DNA from: Patescibacteria group bacterium
GTDB taxonomy: Bacteria > Patescibacteriota > UBA1384 > XYA2-FULL-43-10
Assembly (NCBI GenBank): GCA_041674405.1
Contig: JBAYVT010000005.1
Span: 77,047-141,046, forward strand
Direction: 5' to 3'
Length of the DNA: 64,000 nt
The notes beneath the pieces are model-generated. The model ran no database searches. It was not told where the DNA came from and saw nothing but the letters and a program-made list of their open reading frames with translations. Made by a program: the position numbers and the translations under genes. This document shows positions 6,415 through 62,323 of this stretch, in pieces (positions within the stretch are counted from its first letter, which is position 1; every line of letters starts with the position of its first letter).

Positions 6415-7062
6415 TCATGGCGCACTAACAAGATTTGAACCGACGAAAAATATTTCTGGATATTCCGGTGATGTATAGGCGCTGGAAAAATCTTTGAGCG
6501 ATTCAGATGCGGACAGTGCCATCGCTTGCCCTTGTGTATCGCGGAGTGTTTGGCTGAAAAATTTCCTACCATTCCCATCATTTGCGATTTCAAGGTGAGC
6601 GGCTAATACATAAGAATATTTCGATGTAAGATAGGTGTAAAAATATTCATTCGGATCCGCATGCCAAGTTACATGGTTTTGGGTATTATCTTTTTGTTTA
6701 GGATCTTCCGCCATAGGAAGGGGAATATATCCGTTGAGAAGCCCATTGAGACCGCTAGACCAGCGATTAGTATTGGGTCCACCATCCGGGTTTGACAATG
6801 AATTACAGCTTCTTACCCGATACCAATTTTGGCCGGCTGGAACATTTACTGCATCATATGGATATACCCTTCTATCGGCATGAAATGCTTCAATTGCCGC
6901 AGCAATTGCCTGAATATCAGCCTTTCTCTTGTTGTCCCGCGCTTTTGCCTGGGCATTGGTATATGAAATGATAATAATTGTTGCAAGAATCCCAATAATT
7001 GCAACTACGACAAGCAGCTCAATTAATGTAAATGCCCTTGATTTTGCTAAATGCCGTCTCAT
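6415..7062 (-). CDS. Type IV pilin (paralog of 7059-7625)
   Basis: 215 aa. [42 protein letters not shown]. The first ~45 aa are nearly identical to the neighbouring gene. Confidence 0.8.
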   Translation of the reverse strand: MRRHLAKSRAFTLIELLVVVAIIGILATIIIISYTNAQAKARDNKRKADIQAIAAAIEAFHADRRVYPYDAVNVPAGQNWYRVRSCNSLSNPDGGPNTNRWSSGLNGLLNGYIPLPMAEDPKQKDNTQNHVTWHADPNEYFYTYLTSKYSYVLAAHLEIANDGNGRKFFSQTLRDTQGQAMALSASESLKDFSSAYTSPEYPEIFFVGSNLVSAP

Positions 7063-7625
7063 CTATTTGTGTGTTTATCTATAAAATAGGCCTTGTTATT
7101 GTCATGATCTTGTTGGTTGTAAGAAAAATTTGGCGGATCAGTGGTTGCGGGACCATATCCCCCGCAAATCCCGCCCACAGGGTAAAAAGCGGTGTTTCCG
7201 GAAGAAGTCTCAAGACGGGTAGTCAAACAATACTGATTTGGCCACAATATAACCCCGTAAGAATAAATCTCACTTTGATTCCACGATTCAAGTCCATTGT
7301 ATGAGCTGAGTGCAACCTTTGGATCTTGCGGTAGAGAACTAAGATAGCCCGAAAGCCAATTGCCCAACTTGGGCCAATAGCGAGGGTCTGCAGAATCGTT
7401 GACATATGAGGCGAAGGTATCATGATCTGTGTTGGAATACCTATGCTTATCGGCATATCTCATTTCCAACGCACTGGCGATGGACTCGAGATCGACCTTT
7501 CTTTTATTATCTCTGGCTTTGGCTTGTGCATTATTATAAGAAATGATAATTATTGTTGCCAAAATTCCGATTATTGCAATAACAACCAATAACTCAATTA
7601 ATGTGAAACCTCTTTTTCTGTCCAT
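7059..7625 (-). CDS. Type IV pilin
   Basis: 188 aa. [42 protein letters not shown], a prepilin cleavage/methylation signal. Confidence 0.8.
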   Translation of the reverse strand: MDRKRGFTLIELLVVIAIIGILATIIIISYNNAQAKARDNKRKVDLESIASALEMRYADKHRYSNTDHDTFASYVNDSADPRYWPKLGNWLSGYLSSLPQDPKVALSSYNGLESWNQSEIYSYGVILWPNQYCLTTRLETSSGNTAFYPVGGICGGYGPATTDPPNFSYNQQDHDNNKAYFIDKHTNR

Positions 7626-9497: not shown

Positions 9498-10700
9498 CTA
9501 CTGAATTTGCGCAATATTATAAATCGGCACCAAGATTGCAAAAATGAGAAATGCCACGCCAAAGCCAATAACCAAAAGCACGGCTGGTTCAACCAGAGTG
9601 GAAATGCCCTTAATTTTTTCGGATGTTTCAGATTCATAATATGTTGCAACCTTATCCAGCACCTTATCCAGTTTGCCAGTCTGCTCACCAACAGCTACCA
9701 TCTGCCCCATAAGTCCGGGAAAAGAAACGTCCTTGGAGAGTGGAACGGAAAGCGGAACACCTTTTTCTACTTCTAAAGCCATCTGCGCGATACTTTCTTC
9801 GTAAATTTGATTATTCATTGTGGCACCAGCAATTTTTAATGAATCAAGTATTGGCACGCCAGACGAAATTAGCATTTCGAGCGTACGCGAAAATCTGCTC
9901 ATGTAAATCCCTTCGGATAATCCTTTAATACCGGGAATTTTCAATTGCCATATGTTTAGTGTTCTGGCTCCCACGTCAGAAACGAGCCAAAAACGAATTC
10001 CCAAAACCAACAAGATCAAGATTATCAAAGCTAGCCACCACATATTTGTGAAAAATCCTGAAAGGGCTATCAAAACCCGCGTGGCCACCGGCAATGTAAC
10101 ACCATTCGCCTTAAAAATTACATCTAATTTTGGAATAACCGCAACAAGCATATATACACCAATACCAAGCAGGGCAACAAGTATAAATATCGGATAATAA
10201 AGTGCGCTTTTGATCTTGCCCACAAAATTGTTATCATTTTCATATTTATCAGCCAGTTGCGATAATACCACCTCGAGATTACCCGTTGTTTCTCCTGATC
10301 GTGCAACAGACACGAAGATTCGGTCAAAAACGTTCGGATGTTTTGCCAGTGCTGTTGAAAAAGCGTAACCTTCTTCGATATCCTTGAAGATTTCATAATA
10401 AGCAGCCTTTAATTGTTCATTCCGCGCTTGCTTCGCGACGATACTCAATGCTTTTGACAATGTAAGCCCAGCACCAATCATTGTGGCGAGTTGGCGGGCA
10501 AAAACAGCTTTGTCTTTTAGGGTTGCTTTGGAAACAAACAGATTATTAAAATTTAGTTGTTTCCTTTCTGCGATAATTTCACTAGGAAACAACTTGTTTG
10601 AAAGGAGCATTTTTTCAGCCGCAAATTCATTCGCCGCTTCTACCGAGCCGGTTACATTTGCCCCTTTGTCGTTTTTTGCTTTAAATAGAAATTTCGCCAT
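9498..10700 (-). CDS. pilC: Type IV pilus assembly platform protein PilC (GspF family)
   Basis: 400 aa with duplicated GspF domains and 3 TM segments. Confidence 0.85.
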   Translation of the reverse strand: MAKFLFKAKNDKGANVTGSVEAANEFAAEKMLLSNKLFPSEIIAERKQLNFNNLFVSKATLKDKAVFARQLATMIGAGLTLSKALSIVAKQARNEQLKAAYYEIFKDIEEGYAFSTALAKHPNVFDRIFVSVARSGETTGNLEVVLSQLADKYENDNNFVGKIKSALYYPIFILVALLGIGVYMLVAVIPKLDVIFKANGVTLPVATRVLIALSGFFTNMWWLALIILILLVLGIRFWLVSDVGARTLNIWQLKIPGIKGLSEGIYMSRFSRTLEMLISSGVPILDSLKIAGATMNNQIYEESIAQMALEVEKGVPLSVPLSKDVSFPGLMGQMVAVGEQTGKLDKVLDKVATYYESETSEKIKGISTLVEPAVLLVIGFGVAFLIFAILVPIYNIAQIQ

Positions 10701-10782
10701 ATATCAGTTTGTTGTTATTGGTCCGTAGTTTTTAGTTAATTTCAACTGGCTTTTAGTTTTTATATTTAAGTTATTAACTAGC

Positions 10783-11853
10783 TTAATAAACCATCATCTT
10801 AAAGCTCTTCGGATCAAGCGACCATGAAAGCGCATCCTCGAGCGTAATTTCGCCCCTTGATACCAATTCAGCCAACACTTTATCAAGGCTGATCATGCCT
10901 TCAGACGCAGAAGTCTGAATCACATTTGGAATTTGATGAATTTTACCTTCACGAATCAAGCTGCGAATTGCAGAGTTCGCAATCATAATCTCTGCGGCCA
11001 TGACGCGACCACCATTGACTTTTGGAATCAATCTTTGTGACACCACCCCAAGAAGCACTGAGGCTAATTGCGATCTTACCTGTTGTTGCTGGTGTGGCGG
11101 AAAAACAGAAACAATACGATCCGCGGTTTGAGCAGCGGAATTTGTATGAAGTGTGGTAAACACTAAGTGGCCAGTCTCAGCCATCGTAAGAGCCGCATCT
11201 ATGGTCTCCAGATCTCGCATTTCACCCACCAGAACAACATCCGGGTCTTCACGAAGGGCTGATCGCAGTGCACGAGCAAAAGTATTGGTATCCTGCCCGA
11301 CCTCTCTTTGTGAAATGAGTGATTTTTTGTGTTCAAAAACATATTCAATTGGGTCTTCAATCGTAATGATATGATTGCGTTTTTCGGAATTTATCCGGTC
11401 TATCATTGCAGCCAATGTGGTAGATTTTCCTGAACCAGTCGGTCCGGTAATAATTACAAAACCCTGGCTTGGCTCGGTAAATTTCTCTAAAATCGGCGGC
11501 ATGCCCAGCTCTTCAAATCCCCTAATTTTGCTCGGAATTAAACGAAGCGAAGCAGCTTCGTAGCCCTTTTGGTAGTAAATATTGACACGAAAACGCATTT
11601 CTTTGTAACCAAAAGAGAAATCAATCTCCTTTTTCTGTTTCAAAAGAAGAAGAACATCTTCAGATACGATACCCGAAATCAACTCTTTGGCTTTTGCCTG
11701 AGTGACTGCTGGCACTTCTGGAATCGAGAACAATTTACCATCTACGCGTAATGTGACCGGAACACCCACGCTAATGTGAATATCAGAAGCATTCTTGGAT
11801 ATCGCATATTCAAGATATTTGCTCATTTCCGGACTTAATTTCCCCTCCGTCAT
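10783..11853 (-). CDS. pilT: Twitching-motility retraction ATPase PilT
   Basis: 356 aa. Walker A GPTGSGKST, Asp box and His box (TLHTNSAAQTADRI), with a PilT-length C-terminus lacking an N-terminal extension. Confidence 0.85.
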   Translation of the reverse strand: MTEGKLSPEMSKYLEYAISKNASDIHISVGVPVTLRVDGKLFSIPEVPAVTQAKAKELISGIVSEDVLLLLKQKKEIDFSFGYKEMRFRVNIYYQKGYEAASLRLIPSKIRGFEELGMPPILEKFTEPSQGFVIITGPTGSGKSTTLAAMIDRINSEKRNHIITIEDPIEYVFEHKKSLISQREVGQDTNTFARALRSALREDPDVVLVGEMRDLETIDAALTMAETGHLVFTTLHTNSAAQTADRIVSVFPPHQQQQVRSQLASVLLGVVSQRLIPKVNGGRVMAAEIMIANSAIRSLIREGKIHQIPNVIQTSASEGMISLDKVLAELVSRGEITLEDALSWSLDPKSFKMMVY

Positions 11854-11950
11854 ATACCCTCCAAAATAGTACTAAAGAGCACCTATAACCATTATAAATA
11901 TACGCTTAATTGTAGTCAACTGCTTTTAAGATTTTGAGGTTAACGCTTTA

Positions 11951-14470
11951 TTAGCTGCTTGTTGCACGGAATACTTCATCAATAGTGGTCAAACCCTCAA
12001 GTGCTTTAAGTATTCCATCTTGTTTCATCGTAATCATCCCGTCTTTTAAGGCCGCTTCTCTGATTTCGTTCGCCGGCCTTTTCTCAACAGTAAGGGCCTC
12101 AATTTCATCTGTCATGCGCAAAACTTCAAATATGCCGATTCTTCCCACATAACCTTGTGAACAATTACTGCATCCCACGCCATGGTAGAATTTAAATTCT
12201 GATGGAATTCTTTTTTTGTCTTGTTCGTTTTGGGCTGATATGGCGGATAATTCTTTTTTAACCTCTTCGATAAACGCTTGCGGAACTTTCATTTCCTCTT
12301 TGCACTTTGGGCAGATTCTACGGACTAGTCTCTGTGCAATAATGATGTTGATTGAAGAGGTGATCAAAAACGGTTCAATTCCCATATTTGTAAATCTGGG
12401 CAAAGCGCCCGAAGCATCATTCGTGTGAAGAGTAGAAAGTACGAGGTGGCCAGTAAGCGCGGCGTGAGTTGCCATCTCAGCAGTTTCCCCATCCCTAATT
12501 TCACCAACCATCACCACATTTGGGTCTTGGCGCAGTACACTGCGCAATCCTTCTGCAAAGGAAAATCCGATACCTGGTTTTACCTGGCACTGGTTAACTC
12601 CATTAATTTCATATTCAACAGGATCTTCGAGGGTAACAATATTCACCGATGGTTTACTGATTCGATTAATAATTGCGTATAAAGTTGTGGATTTTCCAGA
12701 ACCAGTGGGGCCTGTGGACAGAATAATTCCGAATGGTTTTCCGATCGCCTCAATAGTTAAATCAAAACCACGGCCGATCATCCCCAGGTCTTCAAGGGAA
12801 AGAATGCCCTGATCTTTGTCTAGGATTCTCATCACAATCTTTTCGCCATGCACCGTAGGCAGTGAAGAAACTCGAACATCCACCTCTCGATTCTTAAATG
12901 TAACGTCAAACCTTCCATCCTGCGGAACTCTTGTTTCATCAATTTTCAGTTTTGACAAAATCTTCACACGGCTCGTAATCGGAGGATGCAAAGACAACGG
13001 CAATCTGATAATATCTCTCAAAATTCCATCAATTCTATATCTGACGCGCAGATCCTTTTGTTCTGGTTCAATATGAATGTCAGATGCGCGCTCAAACAAA
13101 GCGAAATTTATTAAAGCAGCAACTATCTTGGGTGCCGAAGAATTCTTGATATTGCTTTTTAGGCCCTCGACATCAACAATATCTCCTTTAAGATAGGCCC
13201 CGATGTTTTTTTCGCTTTCTTCCACGCTTTCATCAGTTTTTGGATTTTTTTCAAGCTCTTCCGTTGCAATTTCGCTGATATCAGTCTTTGATTCGAGATC
13301 AGGATTATCACTTGGCTGCTCACCATTTTGCCCTGCAGTCTTATCTTCAACGCCATCGCCAGTTTTTGATTCAGTCTTTGTGGGTGATTTTATATCTTCC
13401 GGGGCAGTAATATTGCCAACCGCAGCTGTTTCTCCGCCTGGCTGAGCCCCAAATGGGGCAACGATTGTCTCTTTTTCATCCCCACTCTCTTCGCTGTCAA
13501 TTCTAATTACTGGCGTTACCTGAGAAACGGGCTCCTTTTTTCCAAGAAAAGAGCCAAACAAGCTCGAAAGTGTAATAATTTCATCACCAGATGATTGCTT
13601 TTTTTCAATAACTTTTTCTTTGGTTTTTTCTTCTTCCACCTCTACTTTGACAGAATTTTCTTTTTTATTCTCAAGCTTTTTCTTGTATGCCTCGATCGCA
13701 TAGTCGATATCTTCGCGAGAAGTGGCAAAAATTTGAAAATTAATTTTGTTAGCATTCTCCAAAGATTTGATGGCCTTGTGCAAAGCAGTATCATCTGGGT
13801 TCTCTGCTGCCAGAGCGAATGAATTATCCGTTTTTTTGTAAAAAACAACTACCCGATACTGCTCAATAAATGAAAGCGGAAGCTTGCCCAGATATTCCGA
13901 CCTTATGTCCTGATTTCGCAAAAAGACCGTCGGATAACTTCCGGTAGACAATAAATCCTCAAACTTTCCCTTTTGGTCGTATTGTTTTAACGCCTCCAAA
14001 AAATCTGATTTTGCGGTTATATATAAATCTAAATTCAAATGCCTATCTTCGATAATTTTTTGAAGGCCCTTGTTGAAATTTAGAGACAATTCCGTGGGAT
14101 TGGCAACAGCAAGCTGCAATGATCCCTCCTTAAGCCCAAATGGGATCACAGAAAATTTTTCTGCAACTGATTTCGGTATAATACCAAAAACATCGTGTGG
14201 AATTTCAAAATTCTTTAGGCTGACATATGGGATTTTCAAAAGAATACTATACGCTTTGTTTATGGTGTCCGAACTGACAATACGATTTTTCAAAAGAAAA
14301 TTTTCCACATCTCTATTGGTTCGGTATTTTTTCTTGAGTTTGGTTGCGTCAGGTGCGGTTAGTAATCCCTGCATTACAAACACATCCAAAACAGACTGGG
14401 TAATAGAATTATAATCCAATCCATTCAAAAAATAAGAGTTTTTTGAAACTGTTTGTGACATTGTATTCAT
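11951..14470 (-). CDS. pilB: Type IV pilus extension ATPase PilB/GspE with N-terminal GspE_N domains and a long acidic low-complexity linker
   Basis: 839 aa. The C-terminal core has GPTGSGKSTT and the tetracysteine CPKC...CSNC motif. About 175 aa of K/E/S/D-rich linker separate it from the N-terminal domains. Confidence 0.85.
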   Translation of the reverse strand: MNTMSQTVSKNSYFLNGLDYNSITQSVLDVFVMQGLLTAPDATKLKKKYRTNRDVENFLLKNRIVSSDTINKAYSILLKIPYVSLKNFEIPHDVFGIIPKSVAEKFSVIPFGLKEGSLQLAVANPTELSLNFNKGLQKIIEDRHLNLDLYITAKSDFLEALKQYDQKGKFEDLLSTGSYPTVFLRNQDIRSEYLGKLPLSFIEQYRVVVFYKKTDNSFALAAENPDDTALHKAIKSLENANKINFQIFATSREDIDYAIEAYKKKLENKKENSVKVEVEEEKTKEKVIEKKQSSGDEIITLSSLFGSFLGKKEPVSQVTPVIRIDSEESGDEKETIVAPFGAQPGGETAAVGNITAPEDIKSPTKTESKTGDGVEDKTAGQNGEQPSDNPDLESKTDISEIATEELEKNPKTDESVEESEKNIGAYLKGDIVDVEGLKSNIKNSSAPKIVAALINFALFERASDIHIEPEQKDLRVRYRIDGILRDIIRLPLSLHPPITSRVKILSKLKIDETRVPQDGRFDVTFKNREVDVRVSSLPTVHGEKIVMRILDKDQGILSLEDLGMIGRGFDLTIEAIGKPFGIILSTGPTGSGKSTTLYAIINRISKPSVNIVTLEDPVEYEINGVNQCQVKPGIGFSFAEGLRSVLRQDPNVVMVGEIRDGETAEMATHAALTGHLVLSTLHTNDASGALPRFTNMGIEPFLITSSINIIIAQRLVRRICPKCKEEMKVPQAFIEEVKKELSAISAQNEQDKKRIPSEFKFYHGVGCSNCSQGYVGRIGIFEVLRMTDEIEALTVEKRPANEIREAALKDGMITMKQDGILKALEGLTTIDEVFRATSS

Positions 14471-14475
14471 TTCTC

Positions 14476-14730
14476 TTATTCCGGATTAGCAAATGGGTTT
14501 GCTTTGCCCATTTTTGTAGTTGGGTCAGGAAGCGGTATTCCGGCATTGTTCTCACGACCCTGAACAAGCGTCTCAGCTTCATCCTTAACCCCGGAGATGT
14601 CAAGAGTAATATAAGATGCCGTATTTTGTACCGAGATGCTTGAATTATTTTTCCAGATCATGTAAAAACCAACGATAGCGATCGTGAGAAATATTAGGCT
14701 TAAAATTAAATTGAATGTTCTTTTCTTCAT
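14476..14730 (-). CDS. Small single-pass membrane protein in the T4P operon (unknown; possibly a pilus assembly accessory protein)
   Basis: 84 aa with an N-terminal TM helix. It is operonic with the pilO-like and pilB genes. Confidence 0.4.
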   Translation of the reverse strand: MKKRTFNLILSLIFLTIAIVGFYMIWKNNSSISVQNTASYITLDISGVKDEAETLVQGRENNAGIPLPDPTTKMGKANPFANPE

Positions 14731-15299
14731 TGTGTCTCCCCCGCACTAACACTTCCTCTGGTATAAACCTCCAGGGTATAAGATGCCGATATGATATTTT
14801 CTTCCGGAGAAGTCATTGATAGCGCCTTTATGCGCATAAATTTAATGCTTTTTTCGATCGTGTCGGTAAATGCGCTTATGTTTTCAAAAGAACCGGAAAC
14901 TGAAAAACTTACATTCAATAGATTTCCTGCTGTTACAGTTTCCGCCCCCTCGCCCTCTGTGGTGGAGATTGCAGGAGCAATGTCTATGGATGGAACAGCC
15001 AATGAATTTTTTGTAGCCATTGCCTCAATTTCAGAAATTAAATTCGGCTCATCATTGTCGGATGGAACCGCGATCAAAAGCTCATTAATGGTATCCGATA
15101 TAGAAGATAAGCTGCTCTTTGCCTCTTCGATCGAAGCAATTTCATTTTTTGCATCCGAGACTTCTGCCGATAATTTCTCTGCTTCAGCCTTGTTGTTAGA
15201 ATACGATGGAAGAATAATCTTCCACGATATCAAGAAAACAATAATTGTAAGAATTACTGCGATTGAATTTGAAGCCATTTTGCTGTTTGTTTGTTTCAT
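14727..15299 (-). CDS. PilO-like pilus assembly protein (bitopic, coiled-coil)
   Basis: 190 aa: N-terminal TM helix, coiled-coil (AEAEKLSAEVSDAKNEIASIEEAK), periplasmic domain. Positioned between the pilN-like gene and pilB. Confidence 0.5.
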   Translation of the reverse strand: MKQTNSKMASNSIAVILTIIVFLISWKIILPSYSNNKAEAEKLSAEVSDAKNEIASIEEAKSSLSSISDTINELLIAVPSDNDEPNLISEIEAMATKNSLAVPSIDIAPAISTTEGEGAETVTAGNLLNVSFSVSGSFENISAFTDTIEKSIKFMRIKALSMTSPEENIISASYTLEVYTRGSVSAGETQ

Positions 15300-15312
15300 G
15301 ATAAATCCAATT

Positions 15313-16080
15313 TTATGGCGCTACTTCCGGAGTTATGTTTTCTGTGTTCACACTATCTCCGTAACCATAGGTTGAGCTGCTATCAGTCCCGGAACTATCC
15401 GTTGTGACACTGCTTGATGTTGAAGCAGGTGTTGATTCGCTGGTTTCAGTTTCAGCATTTGATGACGTAGTAGTAGAAGAAGATGTGCTGCTCTCGGTTG
15501 TGACTTCCTTTGTCGTATCTAGCTTGAAGGAAACAGAAAATGTTACTTTTTCGTTTGGCGGCGCATCCTCTGCCGTCGACATGGAAACGCTCTTTAGCTG
15601 AAGATCAGAAACTTTGTCGTATGATTTAAGCGCAAGCATAAAATCTGCAACGGTGCGATATGATGCGGTAGCGCCATCTAGGCTAGCTGTTCCATCGGAA
15701 GTGAGAGCGATCGTTGAAATATGAACATCCTTCGTAAAATGCAAATACAAGTTATCTAGAACCTTTTTCTTGCTTTCCTGCTGAGTGGAAACTTGAGATA
15801 GGATTGAAATTACATTTTTAAGTCCAGTAACGTCATTGATAACTTTTTGATTTTCCACTAAAGCTAGGGTTGCATCCGCGGATTTTTTTTCGCTTTGCTT
15901 TTCGGAAATTGTAGTCTTAAGCGATGCGTCCGAAAACCAGATAAAACCCAAAAATAAAACCGCTACAACAAAAGATAACCAGACAATCAGAGACGAAAAA
16001 TCCGTTTCTTTTCTGTCGGCAAATTCGACTATTTCTTTACCACTTTGGTTATCGTGTACACCCGGTTTTTCTTCCGGCAT
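15313..16080 (-). CDS. PilN-like pilus assembly protein with a Ser/Thr-rich C-terminal tail
   Basis: 255 aa: short cytoplasmic N-terminus, TM helix, coiled-coil. The last ~60 aa are almost pure S/T/D/E. Confidence 0.5.
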   Translation of the reverse strand: MPEEKPGVHDNQSGKEIVEFADRKETDFSSLIVWLSFVVAVLFLGFIWFSDASLKTTISEKQSEKKSADATLALVENQKVINDVTGLKNVISILSQVSTQQESKKKVLDNLYLHFTKDVHISTIALTSDGTASLDGATASYRTVADFMLALKSYDKVSDLQLKSVSMSTAEDAPPNEKVTFSVSFKLDTTKEVTTESSTSSSTTTSSNAETETSESTPASTSSSVTTDSSGTDSSSTYGYGDSVNTENITPEVAP

Positions 16081-16183
16081 CTCCCCTCCGAGGGCAATGT
16101 TATATCATCAAAGATAATTGTAACACAACTTTCTGTCTATACAAATTTTATATCACATAAAATCTCAATGCAATACCTAAAAG

Positions 16184-17356
16184 TTATCTTTCGGACGCAA
16201 CCGGCATATTGAAATACCTGAATCCGGGCGGCCAATTGCCCGAAAGATTATAATCATATGCAAATCTGATATTTACAATATTAATACCTCGGCCTGATGA
16301 ATCCAAAACAATAAAGTCTCTCGCAACATACGAACCGTTCATCGTTACATTTTGAGTAAAACCAGTGGTGTTTTGAATTCTGATAGCTCCCAGGGCAAAC
16401 ATCGCAGCCGTTATTTTGCTGTTGCTATAAAGGCGAACATTTCCAGTGCCATTAACAATGATTCCGAGCGAATTTGACGGATTCTGAGAATCCTCAGGAC
16501 TAATATTCACTCCATCTTGGATAGTCAAAGTGCCATTAATAATGATTGTTCCACGCCCGCTATATGTAATCGATTGACCAAGGTTAACATTGCCGTTTAC
16601 AACCCATATTTTCCCTTCGGGATATTTTTCAGTGTTATTTCCGCCTACTCCCCCGGTGTAAAAAGAGCTGTAATCATCCGCCTGCAGATGCCAACGCAGA
16701 CCCCCGGCCAAATCTGCCGGAGCATTTATCACTTCTGCTTCTCCCGCAAGATCATTTATCCGATTTGTATATGAAGATCTCTGGCTTTCAGCATAGGATG
16801 CTTGCGCCTCAGAATTTAGCGTGTAATTTCGGATATTCCAACTGGCGTTTCTGTTTGAGTTTAAATTCAAATTTTTACCATACACTTGAAAATTATTCAG
16901 AACATCTGCACTACTATAGATATCTCCCTGGACAGATAACACTGGATAAAAAAGCGTCGAAATTTCAAGCCCCGTTGAACCTCCAATTTTTGTGCGACTA
17001 ACCATATTCCGAATCGATGAATTTGCAGGATCAAGGCGATAGCAATATGGGTTGGTCGTGATTTTATCCCAACAATATGCCGCGCCCGGAGAGACTAACA
17101 TCGATTGATTAAACCCGAGTAGATAATTCTGGTCAAAATTAATTACTGCTTCGTTGCCGTTCATTCCGGAATAATAAACTTGGCCACTATCTTTTGTGAC
17201 TGTTAAATTTCCAACCAAAACTTGCGGAAGCTGATATGATTCAGCAAAAGCATTTGCCGGTATAAGCGCAAATACCACTAATAACGATAGAAACAAATAT
17301 ATTCTAACTAATCTGGTCATGATCGCTCTGTTAATTAGTATGTTCGAACCTGGCAA
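16184..17356 (-). CDS. Secreted protein with N-terminal signal/anchor and beta-helix-like repeats (possible pilus-associated protein)
   Basis: 390 aa with a hydrophobic N-terminus ...LLVVFALIPANAFA. Repetitive N/G/T-rich segments (NGNVNLGQSITYSGRGTIIINGTLTIQDG) follow. Confidence 0.5.
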   Translation of the reverse strand: MPGSNILINRAIMTRLVRIYLFLSLLVVFALIPANAFAESYQLPQVLVGNLTVTKDSGQVYYSGMNGNEAVINFDQNYLLGFNQSMLVSPGAAYCWDKITTNPYCYRLDPANSSIRNMVSRTKIGGSTGLEISTLFYPVLSVQGDIYSSADVLNNFQVYGKNLNLNSNRNASWNIRNYTLNSEAQASYAESQRSSYTNRINDLAGEAEVINAPADLAGGLRWHLQADDYSSFYTGGVGGNNTEKYPEGKIWVVNGNVNLGQSITYSGRGTIIINGTLTIQDGVNISPEDSQNPSNSLGIIVNGTGNVRLYSNSKITAAMFALGAIRIQNTTGFTQNVTMNGSYVARDFIVLDSSGRGINIVNIRFAYDYNLSGNWPPGFRYFNMPVASER

Positions 17357-19899
17357 TAATATGTGATTGGGGAAGTAAGTGGGTTCTGGCCATTATTCGC
17401 CCATTCTACAAAATCTCCAGAATTTGGGTCGGCGCTTGCAACAAATGTTCCGCCATTTAAATAAGCATCAAACCCAAGGCTACTGCTCCCTGTTATATCC
17501 GACGGCTCGCATCTGTATCGGTAGGTATCACTTGGAATTCGCAAAAGTTCATCATCTACCGTTGCAACGCCCGTCATATCGCCAATTTCAATGGACACTT
17601 GAATTACATCCCCTAGCTGCAGCGCATAGGGATTAAAAGCAGCCCCAGACCCCTGCCTATTTATCGGAACCAGTTTTTTGCGAATATTAAATTGCGGCCC
17701 ACCTGTTACAACTATTAATCTGCCATCTTGCCCATCATAAACTTTATCCCCATCGCTATTATTGATTGACCAAGCCCCATTCTTGCTGCCCCTGGCTCCA
17801 CTCACTCTCGAAGCTGTTCTAATAGCACTTGAATCAAGATTGGAGTTTGTATATTGAATAAATATGTAACCCCCGCCTCCCCCAGACGATCCATCAATGT
17901 TATACAAAGGCACAGAAATCAAATTACGGTTGCCAGTGATTGGAATCTCTTGGGCAGATGCTGAAAATACTCCGGACAAACCAACGCCCACATTCAAAGT
18001 TGAGACCCTAATATTAATACTTCCCCCAGCTCCTCCGGCATAACCAGAGTCATTGTCATAAGGCTGCTGCATAGAACTGGTCCATCTTCCCTCAGCAAAA
18101 ATTGCTCTTGAAGATTGAATGGCTAAAACTGATGAATTTATTTCTAATAAACCACCACCGTCACCACCACCATTCCAGCTTCCAGTATATCCGCCCCCAG
18201 AACCAAGACTACTTGGATTATCAGCTGGTCCCCCGTATGTGTTATTTGGCCAATCTGGCGGTTTGCGCCACGTATTACCTCCACAATTTAACCCACTATC
18301 ACCGGCCCCACCTTCTCCTGCATGCGACCCAGCACTAGCAATTGCGGTACACCCACCATTCATTGAAATACCTCCGCCTGGCGCTCCATCAAACGAAACG
18401 CTACCTCCCCTAAGGCGAGTTGAACCATAATTCGGTTGAGTCCCAACACCCCAAGCACCCGCATACCCAGATCCGGTTGCATCAATTTTTCCACCGCTTC
18501 GTATTAAAATTGTGTTGGCCACATTGAGATGTAGGCCCGCTGGATTGTTATTATAATTATCCGCATATGCTTGATCCAACGCATTCCAATTAATAGTTCC
18601 CCCATCATAATGCGAGCCTAAAATATTGTAGCTTGGAATCGCGCCACCTTTGTCATCCCAAGTACCAAGTGGATCGGCTACTGGGGTAGAGTTTTGCCCC
18701 CATCCTTGCCACTCAAATTTGAAGGTATCATCGTTGTGGTATGCATCCCATTTGCCATAAGACTCGCCGGTTCCTCCATTGGAACCAACAGGACTATCGA
18801 GCATTCTTAAATCTTGCCTTAAATTCATGTTACGCTTGTGTCCAGCCAGAACCGCATTAGAAAAGCCAGATCCCATATTAAGGTCATATTGTGGAATAGT
18901 CTTTTCGGTATAGGCAGAAATATAATAGTCGAAATCCATTCTTCTCACCAAAGATGTATTTACAGTTCCATCTTCATTGGAGCCATAGAAATTACTCAGA
19001 GGCATAGCTACAGCAGCCACAGCAACGCCATATGGGGACGAGGGATTGAGCTCGATATAATTCAACCAGAGTTGTGATGATCCACTGACTTCACCAAAAT
19101 AAATTTTAACCGGCACATAAGTAGTGGACCCAGTTCCGGTCATTAAGGTTCTTGTGCACGCATCAAGGCCATAGTATCGATTCGCTGGTGATCCATTGCC
19201 AGCATTATCGCCATATATTGGCCAACTAGCCGATAATGAGTCACTATAAATAGTATGCCAGTAAGTAGTATCAACTGTTGTAGCGGGTGCGCTACACGAA
19301 GCGTCGGTTCCGACTTCGATTGCCATCGCATCATCAAGTTTTCCTCCGGCCGCTTGAGGAAATATAAGATTTGTACCTGTTAATTTTATGAAACCTGTCC
19401 AAACCACTCCCCAATAATCAGATGAATATGTGGGGCGATTCAAATGCCCCGTTCTATCTGCATATGCTTGGGTTAATGTACCATTATTTGTAACTGTCAA
19501 GTTATTTAAATTTACCGATCCCTCTGCCATCAATGTTGCGAGTCCAGATGTACTGCCTACCGTAAGGTTTGTGTTTGAATCCACTGCAAAACCGGTATCA
19601 ACATTGTAGAATGTGCTTAAAAATCGCTGGTCGAGCTGAGCATCATTCATTGCCGGCAAAAAAGGAGATTGGTATGTATAAATATGTCCGTCAGTTTTCA
19701 ATAGGTACGAACCAGTTTGAATTGTAACGTCATTACCGGTTTGCACTATCGCTGCCCGCGTCTTGCTCGCGCCGTTCATCATATTGGTCACAATGGCAAG
19801 CCCAGAAAATATCACAAGCAAAATAAGCGCCACATACGTGAAAATTCGCCTGCGATTTATACGATCAATTATCGAGATCTCTCTCATATCCCCTCGCAA
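17335..19899 (-). CDS. Large Gly-rich cell-surface protein (possible pilus-tip adhesin/PilY1-like analogue)
   Basis: 854 aa with an N-terminal TM anchor and GGGGGY, GGGDGGG and SGGGGG tracts. Confidence 0.55.
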   Translation of the reverse strand: MRGDMREISIIDRINRRRIFTYVALILLVIFSGLAIVTNMMNGASKTRAAIVQTGNDVTIQTGSYLLKTDGHIYTYQSPFLPAMNDAQLDQRFLSTFYNVDTGFAVDSNTNLTVGSTSGLATLMAEGSVNLNNLTVTNNGTLTQAYADRTGHLNRPTYSSDYWGVVWTGFIKLTGTNLIFPQAAGGKLDDAMAIEVGTDASCSAPATTVDTTYWHTIYSDSLSASWPIYGDNAGNGSPANRYYGLDACTRTLMTGTGSTTYVPVKIYFGEVSGSSQLWLNYIELNPSSPYGVAVAAVAMPLSNFYGSNEDGTVNTSLVRRMDFDYYISAYTEKTIPQYDLNMGSGFSNAVLAGHKRNMNLRQDLRMLDSPVGSNGGTGESYGKWDAYHNDDTFKFEWQGWGQNSTPVADPLGTWDDKGGAIPSYNILGSHYDGGTINWNALDQAYADNYNNNPAGLHLNVANTILIRSGGKIDATGSGYAGAWGVGTQPNYGSTRLRGGSVSFDGAPGGGISMNGGCTAIASAGSHAGEGGAGDSGLNCGGNTWRKPPDWPNNTYGGPADNPSSLGSGGGYTGSWNGGGDGGGLLEINSSVLAIQSSRAIFAEGRWTSSMQQPYDNDSGYAGGAGGSINIRVSTLNVGVGLSGVFSASAQEIPITGNRNLISVPLYNIDGSSGGGGGYIFIQYTNSNLDSSAIRTASRVSGARGSKNGAWSINNSDGDKVYDGQDGRLIVVTGGPQFNIRKKLVPINRQGSGAAFNPYALQLGDVIQVSIEIGDMTGVATVDDELLRIPSDTYRYRCEPSDITGSSSLGFDAYLNGGTFVASADPNSGDFVEWANNGQNPLTSPITYYCQVRTY

Positions 19900-19954: not shown

Positions 19955-20635
19955 CTATACAACTCTTTTTAATTTCTTCTTTGCCTGTTCTATTTGAATT
20001 ATTGCCTTGACGATGTCCTCATACATTTTATATCGGCTTTTTATCCCGGCCCAGATATCATCATTCTTTTCTTCCTTAATTACCTGGGTTAAACCGTGCA
20101 AAACCACAATCTCACGCCGCTCCTTTGGAACAGCCGCCGTAATCAATGCATCAACGCCGAATCTGGAATGTTTAATTTTTGCAAGTGGAGGCAAATTCTT
20201 CCGCCAAATCACACGTTGGCCGGAGATTGCAGGAAATGCCCTATTGGCGATTTTTGTGGTTGTAAGCTTATCAATATTGAATACACCAAGCGAAAGATCA
20301 GCCGTTTTCATAAATGCCACCGGTCCCAAAAGCTCCAAAATATGCCCCTCTGTTAAACCAATCAAGTCGGCATCCAAAAACAACAAAAGCGGATGGTGCG
20401 AATGTTTAATGCCATTATATAAAGCCATTCCCTTGCCGCCATTTTGTTTGTTTTTAAGAAGGCGTACATTTGAATATTTTTTAACAATTTCGCATGTTTT
20501 ATCCTTTGAGCAATCATCCACAACAATTTTTTCATCAATAAAATCAAGCGGAGCGACTACGTCGAGAACTTTGCGAATATTTTTTGCTTCGTTGTATGCA
20601 CAGATAATCAGTGAAATTTTTTGTTCAAATTTCAT
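19955..20635 (-). CDS. Family 2 glycosyltransferase
   Basis: 226 aa. N-terminal ISLIICAYNEAKNI...VVDDCSKDKT (DxD-type GT-A). Confidence 0.75.
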   Translation of the reverse strand: MKFEQKISLIICAYNEAKNIRKVLDVVAPLDFIDEKIVVDDCSKDKTCEIVKKYSNVRLLKNKQNGGKGMALYNGIKHSHHPLLLFLDADLIGLTEGHILELLGPVAFMKTADLSLGVFNIDKLTTTKIANRAFPAISGQRVIWRKNLPPLAKIKHSRFGVDALITAAVPKERREIVVLHGLTQVIKEEKNDDIWAGIKSRYKMYEDIVKAIIQIEQAKKKLKRVV

Positions 20636-20749
20636 CGCAGACTAATTATACCAAACTATAAAATAAAAATCAGTTTTTGTCGTATAAACGCAGCAACTCC
20701 CACAGACTGGCTGCGGGAGTTGGAGATCTGCCGTTCCCCGGAGGGAACA

Positions 20750-21277
20750 TTACGGCGCGTAGCTGGGGGGAGTGAGATGGCCAGCAATGGTCGTCCCGTT
20801 GTTCGTAGTGACGATGTCACCCTCCGCGGCGAAGTTGGCGGCGAGGCACGCCGCCGCGCCGTCTACCGAGATGTGGTTGCCGTCCATGGCGACCACCTCC
20901 ATCCACCAGGAGCCCTCCTCGTACTGCATCAGAAGATAGGGCTGGGTGCCCTGGCCCAGGTCCAGACTCCGAAGAGCCAGAGACAGGATCTCCTGGCTAG
21001 GCCGGATAGGGACCGACCCGACCTCGACATCGGCAGTGTTGTAGACCTTGATCTGGCCGTTGCCGGTCCCGTCGCGGGACATGGTCAAGTACGTGATGCC
21101 ATCGCCGCTGTCGAGGCGAGCGATGTTGCCCAAGCCGTCTGTGGCCCACTTCACACCCGCCGTCGGGAAGGCCGGGTCCACGCTTCCGCCTCCGCCACCA
21201 CCACAACCAGTCGAGATGAGGATCGCCACCAACATGGCGACCAGTCCGACCAACAACATCCATTTGCGCATGTTCAT
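20750..21277 (-). CDS. High-GC orphan lipoprotein-like protein (start ambiguous: Met at 21304, 21277 or 21271)
   Basis: Signal peptide MRKWMLLVGLVAMLVAILISTGCGGGGGG followed by a G/T/D-rich domain. GC is far above the flanks. The antisense 247-aa ORF is Arg-rich and looks spurious. Confidence 0.5.
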   Translation of the reverse strand: MNMRKWMLLVGLVAMLVAILISTGCGGGGGGSVDPAFPTAGVKWATDGLGNIARLDSGDGITYLTMSRDGTGNGQIKVYNTADVEVGSVPIRPSQEILSLALRSLDLGQGTQPYLLMQYEEGSWWMEVVAMDGNHISVDGAAACLAANFAAEGDIVTTNNGTTIAGHLTPPSYAP

Positions 21278-21540
21278 CACCTGTTCCAGGAGTTCGTACA
21301 CCATGTGGCGGCATACGTATTACAGCGCCATCAAACTAGCATATATTCAGCAATTTGTCAATAATAGATAATTATTTTCTGCCGTTATGCTACCGGCCAC
21401 AAAAAATTCTTCAGCCAAGCCAATCAAAAAATTTCCAACCATCTGGCTGGAAATTTTTTGTCAGACTTGCATACCTTTGTATATCCGAAACACAATGGAT
21501 AAGCATTGTGAAGTTGTTTTTAAAGCTACTTTATCCTAAT

Positions 21541-22257: not shown

Positions 22258-22474
22258 AAATTATTATTTAGGATATTGTTGGCTAATATAGTATCAGAAA
22301 CACAAGTTCAATTCCAGCCATTTTTTAATGACAAAATATCCAATCTGTAGGTGGATATCTTTGGCAATGTAAATATGCAAAGTTAGAACTTGTTATAATG
22401 CCGCATAATCAAAACGGCCGCCCCCGAAGAGGCGACCGTCTGATAATACACCGGAAACGCTCCGGCGCGACTCA

Positions 22475-23149
22475 CTAGCGAAGGCTGAGGTAGCCTTGCT
22501 TCAGTTGCTCGTGAGAGATGGTGATGGTGGCGTACAGCACCCGGTTCTCGTCGATCAGGCTTCCGGGATTCTCGAAGTTCCAGGACGGCAGCCAGAGCAA
22601 GTTGTCCACGTAGTACTTGAAGCGAACCACAGGGGGGCCTTGCTCGCTGGTCAGGACCTTCACCCTCTCCATCGGAAGAGAGCTAACGAAGGTTGGCACA
22701 TCTCCCCCGCTTTGGTTTTGGGGAAGCGACCAGCAGAAGACATAGCTGACTCCTGGCCGAGACTTTCCCTCGACGCTGCCCTCGACGTAGCCTCCGAGGA
22801 AATTGCCTCCCCCGCTTAGGCTTCCACTGAGGTCAGACTTCTGGCCTTTGCTCACCAGCGGGTTGAAGACCAGTGGATGGGGCCCGAGCAGATGGTATCT
22901 CTCCAACTGCCCAATGTTCCACTTCACCCATCCAGTATCTCTGGCAGACTTCTCTCTGGCCCGCTTGATGGCAGAGTCATAGAGTTCGAAGTTACCTATC
23001 CGTGGGTTAAAGCTTCGTTCCCAGAAGTAGTCGGGCGTGTCGAGCCTGACTTTCAGCCAAGACTTGTCCGCGGGAGTCAGCCCCTTGGAGCAGCCTACAA
23101 CTGACACACCTACCAACAGAACCAACAACACGACAGCGATCTTTCGCAT
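22475..23149 (-). CDS. High-GC orphan lipoprotein
   Basis: 224 aa. MRKIAVVLLVLLVGVSVVGCSKG is a signal peptide plus lipobox (VVGC). SD AGGAAGG upstream. A GC-rich hairpin plus T-tract follows at 22411-22440. Confidence 0.55.
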   Translation of the reverse strand: MRKIAVVLLVLLVGVSVVGCSKGLTPADKSWLKVRLDTPDYFWERSFNPRIGNFELYDSAIKRAREKSARDTGWVKWNIGQLERYHLLGPHPLVFNPLVSKGQKSDLSGSLSGGGNFLGGYVEGSVEGKSRPGVSYVFCWSLPQNQSGGDVPTFVSSLPMERVKVLTSEQGPPVVRFKYYVDNLLWLPSWNFENPGSLIDENRVLYATITISHEQLKQGYLSLR

Positions 23150-24946: not shown

Positions 24947-25019
24947 TGGCAGGGGCTAGAGGAGTCGAACCTCTGACTAGGGTTTTGGAGACCCCTATTA
25001 TACCGTTTAACTAAGCCCC
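24947..25019 (-). tRNA. tRNA-Trp (anticodon CCA)
   Basis: Sense GGGGCTTAG...GGGGT-CTCCAAA-ACCCT...AGAGG-TTCGACT-CCTCT-AGCCCC-T-GCCA. Anticodon loop CUCCAAA; encoded CCA end. Confidence 0.85.
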
Positions 25020-52982: not shown

Positions 52983-54341
52983 CTATTTTAATTTTCCGCA
53001 AATATGTTCTGTAACTTTATCAATGGCGACCCGCTCCTGTTTCATTGTGTCGCGATCGCGAATTGTGACTGAATTGTCTTTTAAGGAATCAAAATCAACC
53101 GTCACGCACCAAGGGGTCCCGATCTCATCCTGCCTTCTATACCTTCGACCAACCGAGCCTGATTCGTCATAAAACACATTGAGCCCTGCGGCCTTAAGCT
53201 CATCCGATATCTTCTTGGCAACCTCTGGAAGCCCCTCTTTCTTCATGAGTGGGAAAACGGCAACTTTCACCGGTGCTAGCTTGGGGTGCAAACGTAGGGT
53301 CACCTCGCCGGATTCGCGGCCATCCGATCCATCGGATTCATCATAGGCATCACAAAGGAAGGCGAGCAGTGCCCGGTCAATTCCCATCGAAGGCTCAACT
53401 ACATACGGAATGAAGCGTTTGCCGCCTTGTTCATCGAAATACGAAAGATCTGTGCCTGAGAACTTTGTGTGTTGTGAAAGATCGAAATCAGTTCGCTGGG
53501 CAATCCCGGCAAGCTCAGATTGGCCAAACGGATATTTATATTCGATATCAGACGTGCCGATCGAGTAATGCGACAGCTTCTCCTTCGGGTGTTCGTATAT
53601 AGCTAAATTGTCCTCTTTGATGCCGAGATCGGTGTAGAAATGTTTTACCGCATCGATCCAGGTAGTGTACCACTTTTTAGATTCCTCTTTGTCAGGCGTG
53701 ATGAAATACTCTATTTCAGCCTGCTCGAACTCACGCGTACGGAAAATATAGTTGCCAGGCGTGATTTCGTTCCTAAAAGCCTTTCCGATCTGGGCGATAC
53801 CGAATGGGATTTTTTTTCTCGACGATTCAGTCACGTTTTTGAAGTTGACGAATATACCCTGGGCAGTCTCACCACGCAGATATGTGAGGGTAGAGCTGTC
53901 TTCTACAGGACCCAGGAATGTCTTTACGAGAATATTGAAACTCTTCTCCTCTGTAAGCTCGCCGCCGCAATCCGGGCAAACGTCTTTCTCGAGCTGATCG
54001 GCTCGGAATCTGTGATGGCACTTTTTGCACTCACGAAGAGGATCGGTGAAGCCTGATCCTGTGTGACCAGAAGCCTCCCAAACCTTCGCATTCATGATTA
54101 TACCTGCATCGAGACCGACCATATCTTCGCGTGAAGTGACAAATTTCCTCCACCATTCGTCTTTCAGATTCCGCTTCATCTCCACGCCCAAGGGGCCAAA
54201 GTCGTACACTCCGCCGATTCCGCCATATATCTCGGAAGATTGGAATATAAATCCCCTTCTCTTGCAGAGCGAAATGATCTTATCCATTTTATCTCGAGAA
54301 GCGTCAGCGACGAGAGACGATTCCATATTTTCTTTGGCCAT
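52983..54341 (-). CDS. glyQS: Glycine--tRNA ligase (alpha2 type)
   Basis: 452 aa. The N-terminus ...IISLCKRRGFIFQSSEIYGGIGGVYDFGPLG is the GlyQS signature. Confidence 0.85.
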   Translation of the reverse strand: MAKENMESSLVADASRDKMDKIISLCKRRGFIFQSSEIYGGIGGVYDFGPLGVEMKRNLKDEWWRKFVTSREDMVGLDAGIIMNAKVWEASGHTGSGFTDPLRECKKCHHRFRADQLEKDVCPDCGGELTEEKSFNILVKTFLGPVEDSSTLTYLRGETAQGIFVNFKNVTESSRKKIPFGIAQIGKAFRNEITPGNYIFRTREFEQAEIEYFITPDKEESKKWYTTWIDAVKHFYTDLGIKEDNLAIYEHPKEKLSHYSIGTSDIEYKYPFGQSELAGIAQRTDFDLSQHTKFSGTDLSYFDEQGGKRFIPYVVEPSMGIDRALLAFLCDAYDESDGSDGRESGEVTLRLHPKLAPVKVAVFPLMKKEGLPEVAKKISDELKAAGLNVFYDESGSVGRRYRRQDEIGTPWCVTVDFDSLKDNSVTIRDRDTMKQERVAIDKVTEHICGKLK

Positions 54342-54493: not shown

Positions 54494-55378
54494 ATGCCAG
54501 TTAAAACGTCGCACCTCAGAACCCCGTACGTCAGGCAGTTTCTCCAAGCGTTCGACATGGACCTCGGGTTACTAGATGACCTCGAGGCACTCGTCGAAGC
54601 CTGCTCGAGCCGCAACAAGCGCTTCGAGAGGGGCATGGACAAGGTCCGCTTCGAGTTCGAGCGGGACCAGTCCAAGTGGAATCAGTCCCAGTTGGATGCT
54701 ATCTTCACGCTCTCCGAGCGTTGGAGAATGCGCCATGGGGAGACTCCCTTCAAGGAAGGGTCTTCCTACGACTTGATCGTTACTATGGGCGGAGCCAGAC
54801 TCTCTCCGTGGCAGCGCGGTGCCTATGCCGCCTTGGCAATGTCCGAGGGTCGTGTGAAGGCTAGTACCTTGGTCATCGGCGGATCCAAACGGCACCTGCC
54901 GATGGCAGAGCTTCCGTTCATCACCGACTACGTCGATGTTGAGCGGCTGGTGTCCGAACGCAACCACCAGACCTTCTTGGTCGGCGGCGAAGAGAAATCG
55001 TGCATCACTGAGCATGACCTCTGCCTGGCCGCAGAAGCCAAGCTCGTGAAGGCTCATCCCGATCTCCACATCGTCACGATCTGCGTAGACATGGAGAGGG
55101 CGGGCAACCACGATGTCATCGCTGAGGTCATGAACCACAAGGAGCTCTTCCACTCCGACCGCGCACTATCCGTGGCTGGTGTGTCCACTCAGCTCTACGC
55201 GACCGGCCTGGACGCTGACCTCTGGCTGGACGCCGACACGCATGACTGGCGATACTACTCCGCAATCGGCCACCCGGTCGACCCGATCTACTCCGACCGC
55301 CGCACTCCGACCGTGTACTTCAACGAAATTCAGACGACCATGTGCAAGAAGGCACTGGCCGAGCTCAAGGGCTACTAG
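54494..55378 (+). CDS. High-GC orphan DUF218/YdcF(SanA)-like protein
   Basis: Start preferred at MPVKTSHL, preceded by CCAAGGAGGCaaaccgctATG. The ...DLIVTMGGARLSPWQRGAYAALAMSEGRVKASTLVIGGS...EEKSCITEHDLC... pattern resembles the DUF218 core. GC is far above the flanks. Confidence 0.5.
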   Translation: MPVKTSHLRTPYVRQFLQAFDMDLGLLDDLEALVEACSSRNKRFERGMDKVRFEFERDQSKWNQSQLDAIFTLSERWRMRHGETPFKEGSSYDLIVTMGGARLSPWQRGAYAALAMSEGRVKASTLVIGGSKRHLPMAELPFITDYVDVERLVSERNHQTFLVGGEEKSCITEHDLCLAAEAKLVKAHPDLHIVTICVDMERAGNHDVIAEVMNHKELFHSDRALSVAGVSTQLYATGLDADLWLDADTHDWRYYSAIGHPVDPIYSDRRTPTVYFNEIQTTMCKKALAELKGY

Positions 55379-55430
55379 CCCACAACTTACTGAGATCCGC
55401 CTAGTGGCGGATAATGACTCTACCGCCGCA

Positions 55431-55465
55431 GGCGAGTCCCACTCCGGGGCTCGCCTGTTGCATTT
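55431..55465 (+). terminator. GC-rich hairpin terminator after the high-GC DUF218-like gene
   Basis: GGCGAGTCCC-actcc-GGGGCTCGCC followed by TGTTGCATTTTAT. It is preceded by a second hairpin TCCGCC-tagt-GGCGGA (55396-55411). Confidence 0.5.
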
Positions 55466-57823: not shown

Positions 57824-57989
57824 GAATTGGGCCCCGACTATTGTCGGGGCCCTGTGCTCTCCTCCTCTCTCGGCGGAGGATCACCGAGCCAATACGCGAA
57901 TGGCGGCTCGGCCAGTGGGTCATCTTTGAGTATCTCGGCCCAGGTTGTCTTCTCTTCGTTTGTCATCGCTCTCATGATTTCGACACTCC

Positions 57990-58220
57990 TTAGCAAGACA
58001 GATGTTGCCAGCGGCCAGTGCCGTCAGCGTACGAACGCATGCACTTTCCATGGCCACAGCCGATTTCTCCGCATGCAACGCACCTTTTGAGGCTATTGCG
58101 CTCTCTGCCAGTTTTCTTGGACGGAGCATGTAAACCCGCGTCACAGTGGGGGCATTTTCCCCCGTTCGCGGTGATTCTCCAGCTGCGGTTCCTTCTGTTC
58201 TGACGCTTGCTTGTCGCCAT
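57990..58220 (-). CDS. High-GC orphan zinc-ribbon miniprotein
   Basis: 76 aa with CPHC-x18-CVAC and a further ...CGHGKC. SD AAGGAGGccaggATG. Alternative-frame ORFs are low-complexity and treated as spurious. Confidence 0.45.
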   Translation of the reverse strand: MATSKRQNRRNRSWRITANGGKCPHCDAGLHAPSKKTGRERNSLKRCVACGEIGCGHGKCMRSYADGTGRWQHLSC

Positions 58221-58284
58221 CCTGGCCTCCTTGGCTGTTTGGTTTCGAAAAGCTTAACCGGTTTAAGCCCTTCGAGCCAAAAAC

Positions 58285-62274: not shown

Positions 62275-62305
62275 TAACAGCGATAAAAAGCAAGAGCGGA
62301 CAGCT
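62275..62305 (-). terminator. Intrinsic terminator of the 106-aa higher-GC gene
   Basis: Minus sense: GCAAGAGC-agctgtcc-GCTCTTGC-TTTTTAT. An alternative GCGGAC/GTCCGC pairing overlaps it. Confidence 0.55.
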
Positions 62306-62323
62306 GCTCTTGCCGTCCGCCGG

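Follow-up and report, generated by a model that had tools for sequence, protein, structure and literature searches.

A GC-rich predicted lipoprotein gene with diverged GC-rich relatives beside a GT2 glycosyltransferase gene in Patescibacteria

Our analysis concerned a GC-rich block on the minus strand (20689..21312, 63.3% G+C) within 64,000 nucleotides of contig JBAYVT010000005.1 (assembly GCA_041674405.1) from a Patescibacteria group bacterium. This whole stretch of DNA is referred to as the window. The block carries one gene for a predicted lipoprotein and is located just upstream of a GT2 glycosyltransferase gene, as already stated in a preliminary description of the sequence. We consider it rather probable that this is an old, probably foreign and lineage-restricted surface lipoprotein gene which was not converted to the composition of its host. 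Three diverged lineages retain a GC-rich copy with the same promoter beside the same GT2 gene. The ancestor of a small clade would have obtained the gene horizontally from some GC-rich source, and it would afterwards have been inherited vertically or moved within these genomes.

The GC-rich block, its relatives and its gene

Log-odds segmentation of the G+C content delimited the island at 20689-21312, against a window mean of 40.4% G+C and in good agreement with the region 20690-21320 described previously. The break in composition is abrupt on both sides, as was claimed. In a 200-bp profile the G+C content changes from 32-34% in windows starting at 20400 and 20500 to 65.5% at 20700, stays at 62-67% within the island, and falls from 62% at 21100 to 38% at 21300 and then to 32%. 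The G+C contents at the first, second and third codon positions (GC1, GC2 and GC3) of the open reading frame (ORF) in the island are 0.60, 0.46 and 0.82. This GC3 is about 13 robust standard deviations (SD) above the window median of 0.36, which was derived from 63 ORF-genes with a small robust spread; the neighboring GT2, Ham1 and NUDIX genes have values of 0.38, 0.31 and 0.28. The Karlin dinucleotide distance delta* between island and bulk is 248 (x1000), compared to a maximum of 204 among 582 background windows of equal size, and the tetranucleotide correlation with the bulk is -0.37 for the island versus a background mean of +0.77. Codon choice is inverted relative to the bulk genes, with ATC making up 90% versus 22% of the Ile codons, GAC 80% versus 27%, and GTC plus GTG 93% versus 34%. 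Since dinucleotide distance, tetranucleotide correlation and codon choice all deviate, the anomaly exceeds base composition. Hence, the comparisons of sliding-window composition and codon usage proposed in the preliminary description all set the island apart from its neighbors. A second copy of the island was not found within the window.

When 1.84 billion cluster representatives, which stand for about 15 billion proteins, were searched exhaustively with HMMER, three matches besides the query were returned, namely P0005 (56% identity), P0006 (37% identity) and the marginal P0007 (E = 7e-4). This exhaustive search was needed to reveal P0005 and P0006; in a word-indexed search of 5.8 billion clusters the lipoprotein query matched only itself. 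The product had been termed an orphan. No Pfam, NCBIfam or PHROG family could indeed be assigned, but with two clear relatives it is better regarded as a near-orphan, and these comparisons define a new but tiny protein family.

P0005 is encoded on two short Logan contigs, L015 and L016, directly upstream of a GT2 gene 75% identical to that of the window and followed by a homologue of an 854-aa protein, which is the gene order of the window. P0006, on contig L017, is located directly downstream of a 70%-identical GT2 gene, i.e. on the other side of that gene. The genes for P0005 and P0006 have 60-61% G+C and a GC3 of 0.75, and their neighbors 41-42% G+C and a GC3 of 0.38-0.46. Because the homologues are likewise GC-rich, an older foreign origin is the simplest reading. 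At four-fold sites, the lipoprotein gene and its closest homologue share an identity of 0.39 with 0.31 expected (n=61), so these sites are nearly saturated, and the GT2 genes are saturated with 0.25 observed and 0.25 expected by chance. The lipoprotein evolves about twice as fast as GT2.

The minus-strand ORF is a real gene. Only its frame has the ordering GC3 > GC1 > GC2, and comparison of the sense frame with the closest homologue, the L015 orthologue, resulted in a dN (nonsynonymous divergence) of 0.35, a dS (synonymous divergence) of at least 1.3 and a dN/dS of about 0.26, as expected for a protein under purifying selection. The 184-aa ORF of the preliminary description is present at 20750-21304(-) and reads ...LISTGCGGGGGG..., but P0005 and P0006 begin at the equivalent of its Met12. 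Furthermore, the sequence AGGTGA, a putative Shine-Dalgarno site (21277..21282, minus strand), is located 5 nt upstream of the ATG at 21271; GTGAT is invariant in the upstream regions of the three homologous genes. Thus, the start is likely this ATG, and the product would comprise 173 aa rather than the 184 aa of the annotators, who used the in-frame upstream ATG at 21304. GC phase, homologue starts, dN/dS and the AGGTGA site together place the coding sequence (CDS) of the lipoprotein precursor at 20750..21271 on the minus strand, with 173 codons beginning MRKWMLLVGL and a stop codon.

Two further explanations of the block were considered at this point. GC-rich intergenic blocks in AT-rich genomes often represent structured RNAs, which would suit a structured non-coding RNA in the block. 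An Arg-rich antisense ORF had been named in the preliminary description as the only alternative reading, and a corresponding ORF was called as a gene in the ENA annotation. That either of these accounts for the block is most improbable. The strong three-base periodicity of the sense frame and its dN/dS argue against both. No Rfam match to the block was obtained at gathering or permissive (E up to 1) thresholds, and folding of the entire unit does not surpass that of dinucleotide shuffles (z = -0.75). The antisense ORF does exist at 20621-21364(+), but its GC1 of 0.82 is the wrong GC phase for a gene, its frame is interrupted by a stop in the L015 orthologue, and conservation is lower than in the sense frame. 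It is the expected shadow frame opposite a gene of high GC3. On the ENA contig k141_1464549 of assembly ERZ27247358 (L100/L102), the public call is a 195-aa shadow ORF on the opposite strand and not the lipoprotein, so that at least one public annotation has the antisense frame in place of the lipoprotein gene. The second explanation is an assembly or binning chimera by which DNA of a GC-rich organism was joined into a Patescibacteria contig, as the preliminary description had also offered. Beyond the break in composition itself nothing points to a chimera, which is the least probable of all the explanations weighed in this study. The same junctions are present in a 395,669-bp contig with a MEGAHIT-style name from ENA assembly ERZ27247358 (100% identical over 8.6 kb), in a Logan contig from SRR6484325 (100% identity over 9,248 bp) and in a 2,486-bp JGI contig from 3300037067 (99.96% identity), the last carrying one single-nucleotide polymorphism at 20327 in GT2. 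Junctions were counted as identical in four assemblies, some of which may share raw data; the agreement between the ENA, Logan and JGI assemblies, one with a polymorphism, refutes the chimera. In addition, the protein is on record in an NCBI metagenome-assembled genome (MAG) as MFA7244448.1 (locus tag WC080_04125), related organisms have the same junction between a GC-rich gene and GT2, and the predicted promoter and terminator are placed exactly at the borders.

The transcription unit and its predicted product

Judged from sequence features, the GC-rich block corresponds closely to one complete, independently transcribed unit on the chromosome of an uncultured bacterium, consisting of 5' leader, CDS and terminator hairpins and extending from a predicted sigma-70-type promoter to a hairpin terminator. 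Pattern matching and the alignment of three upstream regions identified the putative promoter TTGACA-N14-TGC-TAGTTT, a -35 box with an extended -10 box, at 21333..21361 on the minus strand. It is located in the AT-rich flank just beyond the block, at a distance of about 20 nt. The window, L015 and L017 agree fully in TTGACA and TATGCTA..TT, and the promoter as a whole is almost invariant among them. A terminator-type hairpin marks the downstream edge of the block at 20694..20722 on the minus strand and is followed by UUGCUGCGUUUAU. The hairpin reported in the preliminary description is therefore real, but it is longer than described, with a 12-position stem and a 5-nt loop. Its arms (20694-20705 and 20711-20722) form 11 Watson-Crick pairs and one G-U pair. 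The hairpin is kept in L015, where two stem pairs were replaced in a compensatory manner (C-G by U-A and U-A by C-G), as read from the alignment. A small hairpin, GUUCCC-UCCG-GGGAAC, is located right after the stop codon (20733..20748, minus strand) and is partly conserved in L015. Folding of the 3' region with both hairpins beats 200 out of 200 shuffles (z = -3.6).

The GT2 gene downstream (19955..20635, minus strand; Pfam PF00535, E = 3e-21) is the constant neighbor of the lipoprotein family and has a separate promoter. Its extended -10 box TGGTATAAT at 20645-20653 on the minus strand is located 9 nt before the GT2 ATG and conserved in L015. The upstream region (20636-20653, minus strand) contains this perfect extended -10 box but no Shine-Dalgarno sequence, an arrangement also conserved in L015, and this suggests that the GT2 mRNA may be leaderless or near-leaderless. 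A promoter conserved in three genomes, a terminator with two compensatory pairs and the separate GT2 promoter all argue for a transcription unit of its own. An integron gene cassette was considered and rejected. The hairpin spans only 29 nt, compared to at least about 57 nt for attC, and its AAC/GTT is on the outer, not the inner, side of the stem; moreover, the unit carries its own promoter, and no integrase was found among its neighbors.

The product has the sequence criteria of a bacterial lipoprotein precursor. The signal peptide, Cys and poly-Gly linker noted in the preliminary description could all be read from the sequence. A putative signal peptide (21203..21271, minus strand) comprises an MRK n-region and a hydrophobic core, reads MRKW followed by MLLVGLVAMLVAIL, and ends in the lipobox I-S-T-G-C; it is kept in P0005 and P0006. 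The Cys23 codon is located at 21203-21205. A lipobox of the form [LVI][ASTVI][GAS]C is present within about 15-35 residues of the start, albeit with an atypical Ser at -3. This position is usually occupied by L, V or I. Residues 20-23 are S-T-G-C in the window protein, L-V-G-C in P0005 and T-T-G-C in P0006. About 45 positions are invariant between the window protein and its homologues; in the alignment of the three-member family these include G22, C23, G24 and G25. Straight after the predicted lipidated Cys follows a tether of six Gly (21185..21202, minus strand), supported by sequence and alignment. The product would cross the membrane via Sec, receive a lipid at Cys23 and be processed by signal peptidase II, and in the mature form an all-beta domain of about 150 aa would extend from the outer membrane-facing side of the cell surface through the flexible Gly6 linker.

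In an AlphaFold2 (AF2) model, the predicted local distance difference test (pLDDT) score is below 50 for residues 1-43. The modeled core at residues 45-135, with block-mean pLDDT values of 63-90, consists of beta structure throughout, with successive antiparallel beta-meanders that recall two or three blades of a propeller. Its best structural neighbors are beta-propeller-like proteins, e.g. Listeria Lmo1340 (PDB 4nlm). Searches of the product and the other island proteins against Pfam, NCBIfam and PHROGs gave nothing above cut-offs. The sole family match of the product was a sub-threshold 'invert_tail' over the signal-peptide region, and a profile search of PDB sequences gave no match with E <0.5. 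In common with bacterial lipoproteins, the substrates of Lgt and signal peptidase II, the protein has a positively charged N-terminus and a hydrophobic core, then a lipobox with its Cys and a flexible tether of the Gly/Ser type; small surface lipoproteins are typically of this size and have such an all-beta globular domain. In contrast to bacterial lipoproteins in general, it has Ser at -3, and no Pfam, NCBIfam or PDB family could be assigned to its mature domain. A motif scan of the window revealed no convincing Lgt or LspA signature.

Origin and persistence of the high G+C content

Since the AT-rich promoter is found together with the gene in L017 as well, the simplest history is that of a single old acquisition, after which the gene was inherited and locally rearranged. 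Repeated import from outside is less likely than one old acquisition. A spread somewhat later than the species split is possible. The sharp island proved to be neither a chimera nor a recent arrival, illustrating that breaks in G+C content alone do not date a transfer.

A recent horizontal acquisition in this genome alone, as proposed in the preliminary description, would be in line with the abrupt break, the inverted codon usage and the near-orphan product, but is very unlikely. Homologues of 56% and 37% identity adjoin orthologous GT2 genes (70-75% protein identity) in two low-GC genomes (L015/L016 and L017), with saturated silent sites and a shared promoter. Because homologues are found at the GT2 locus in related low-GC genomes, a finding which the preliminary description itself had named as a refutation, and silent sites are diverged, the gene was not recently acquired by this genome alone. 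The composition does look foreign, as had been noted; it is the recent arrival that had to be given up. It is also conceivable, if unlikely, that the copies were imported independently and not very long ago in each of the lineages, with different GC-rich donors or a common GC-rich mobile pool as their source, and that every one of them was inserted beside GT2. The position does vary, being upstream of GT2 in the window and L015 and downstream in L017, divergence of the lipoproteins does not scale with that of GT2, and the composition is still strongly foreign. However, the AT-rich region of promoter and leader has been conserved throughout the three lineages, and two of them also share the terminator hairpin. 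Except for the marginal P0007, no homologue from a GC-rich genome was found among the approximately 15 billion proteins. Viral contigs, a plasmid collection (tblastn) and PHROGs contained no relatives, and mobility genes or repeats are lacking as well.

Several findings weigh against the favored history of an old foreign gene. No donor was identified, and the sole match from GC-rich DNA is P0007. This protein is encoded on a contig of 66.5% G+C and aligns with an hhalign probability of 92%, but the aligned part is mainly signal peptide and GCGGG. In view of this and the marginal E-value, P0007 was rejected as a homologue from the donor lineage and is kept as a lead only. The borders lack integrase and transposase genes as well as flanking repeats of any significance, and no tRNA adjoins them. 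The nearest tRNA is located at 24947, with none within about 3.6 kb of the island, and border repeats are short AT-rich chance matches only. The relatives are known only from contigs of 1.4-2.5 kb. Finally, a relaxation model running on the GT2 clock, with the age set to the lineage split, predicted a silent-site GC of at most 0.55-0.67 compared to about 0.75 observed. When the clock is instead set by the lipoprotein gene itself, agreement with the observed value requires the upper confidence limit together with an ancestral GC3 of at least 0.95. In the model, a passive amelioration that started from a very GC-rich ancestor and is still incomplete is thus possible but strained.

The same discrepancy speaks for a different explanation, according to which the high G+C content is no relic but is actively maintained at a GC3 of about 0.75-0.8 against the AT pressure of the genome, either by selection on the transcript or a GC-ending codon dialect or by strong local GC-biased gene conversion. 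In its wider version, a set of small self-contained units, each with AT-rich promoter, GC-rich transcript and GC-rich hairpin, would be kept in this genome and its close relatives. We regard both versions as tentative and clearly less likely than the old foreign gene. Apart from the prediction on the neighbor clock, maintenance could explain why GC3 is 0.75-0.82 in all three lineages despite saturated silent sites, why the GC block coincides with the putative transcribed region next to a conserved AT-rich promoter, and why at least four more units of the window have the same layout, with a preference for C-ending codons shared by islands 1-3 (numbered from the block described here; see below). 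On the other side, the homologue of island 2 on contig L014 has fallen to a silent-site GC of 0.50 at four-fold sites (GC4), compared to 0.76 in the window, as passive decay predicts. The estimates are based on small samples (35-61 four-fold sites) and a crude model, the gene's own clock is compatible with decay from a GC3 of at least 0.95, and the whole transcript shows no excess of folding over shuffled sequences. Moreover, we know of no mechanism that maintains composition at this magnitude. The old foreign gene with slow amelioration is therefore ranked first and maintained composition second. If maintenance were true, it might serve e.g. translation gating or mRNA stabilization of surface or host-interaction genes. 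If persistence of a GC3 of about 0.8 over saturated divergence holds true in complete genomes, such units would offer a small natural system in which to test amelioration theory and to ask whether selection can act on the composition of individual genes.

Individually transferred genes and genomic islets have been catalogued in Patescibacteria (PMC12455944). The island resembles these in being a single gene with atypical G+C content, codon usage and oligonucleotide signature and a narrow distribution. It differs from them in deviating to high G+C in an AT-rich genome, in its lack of a donor and of mobility genes, and in that diverged orthologues, whose silent sites are saturated, have the same atypical composition. 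For ancient transfers, loss of the compositional signal is to be expected (PMC12455944). According to the amelioration model of Lawrence and Ochman 1997, as cited there, foreign genes drift to the composition of the host. This model is the basis of our expectation, and its fit to the silent-site GC, which exceeds the value from the neighbor clock, is marginal.

Neighborhood and further GC-rich units

Downstream of the lipoprotein gene, GT2, an 854-aa Gly-rich protein, a 390-aa protein and pilus genes follow in this order on the same strand. According to Pfam assignments, the latter encode PilN, PilO, a PilB-type ATPase with an MshEN domain, a PilT-type ATPase and PilC; together with the 390-aa and 854-aa proteins this type IV pilus cluster covers 9498-19899 on the minus strand. 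The 390-aa protein has a weak, sub-threshold match to DUF7305. The 854-aa protein has no family match, and its N-terminus is conserved in L015. The constant pairing with GT2 in three genomes and the surrounding surface machinery suggest, from context, that the lipoprotein may have a role in the cell surface or envelope or in host contact. Patescibacteria depend on other cells, and surface proteins are likely contact points. Hence, a lineage-restricted lipoprotein beside a glycosyltransferase gene and a type IV pilus cluster is a reasonable candidate for studies of host contact.

Upstream of the lipoprotein gene are located Ham1, a second GC-rich lipoprotein gene (island 2) and NUDIX. Relatives of Ham1 in the scanned genome contigs have 58-65% identity (Moraniibacteriota and Parcubacteria loci), the nearest being from Moraniibacteriota MAGs. 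The loci found in this way contain no lipoprotein gene, but they lack synteny, hence no empty site is demonstrable. One contig (L004, JALOQQ010000015.1) is labelled as a Planctomycetota MAG, yet has 31% G+C and a Ham1 65% identical to that of the window; it looks like a misbinned Patescibacteria contig. A scan of metagenome contigs with the GT2 alignment gave no close relatives among the matches listed, only distant GT2 genes with a best identity of 39%.

At least four further GC-rich units of one or two genes each were found in the window (22415-23095, 54507-55455, 57829-58235 and 62296-62627). Paralogy was not detected among the proteins of different islands. Island 2 (22415-23095, minus strand) has 58% G+C and a GC3 of 0.72. 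Its CDS (22475-23149) encodes a 224-aa lipoprotein-type product with the clean lipobox VVGC, and the unit has its own predicted TTGACA/extended -10 promoter and a classic terminator of GC-hairpin and T-run. The only homologue of the product, P0003 (about 50% identity), adjoins greA on the 1.1-kb contig L014, and its gene is less GC-rich, with a GC3 of 0.61. A regular-expression scan of ORFs of at least 80 aa found only two plausible lipobox-bearing genes in the window, both of them GC-rich island genes. A third match at 7032-7304(+), encoding 90 aa, overlaps the longer ORFs 6415-7062(-) and 7059-7625(-) and is probably spurious.

Island 3 (54507-55455, plus strand, 60% G+C, GC3 0.77) is located between glyS and recO. 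Its CDS (54494-55378, with a longer ORF from 54434) encodes a 294-aa protein without signal peptide or family match, which in the word-indexed search matched only itself, and a hairpin follows the stop codon. The adjoining glycyl-tRNA synthetase gene (52983-54341, minus strand) has a GC3 of 0.53, about 4.7 robust SD over the median. In island 4 (57829-58235, minus strand, 58% G+C), apparently two small ORFs with strong AAGGAG sites are present, one for a 76-aa Cys-rich (CxxC...CxxC) protein at 57990-58220 and one of about 46 aa at about 57835-57975. This island gave no match in Rfam; it ends in a perfect GGGCCCCGAC/GUCGGGGCCC hairpin and folds with z = -3.0. Island 5 (62296-62627, minus strand) is weaker, with 56% G+C and a GC3 of 0.64; its CDS (62324-62644) encodes a 106-aa protein with a sub-threshold match to DUF4177 and is followed by a hairpin terminator.

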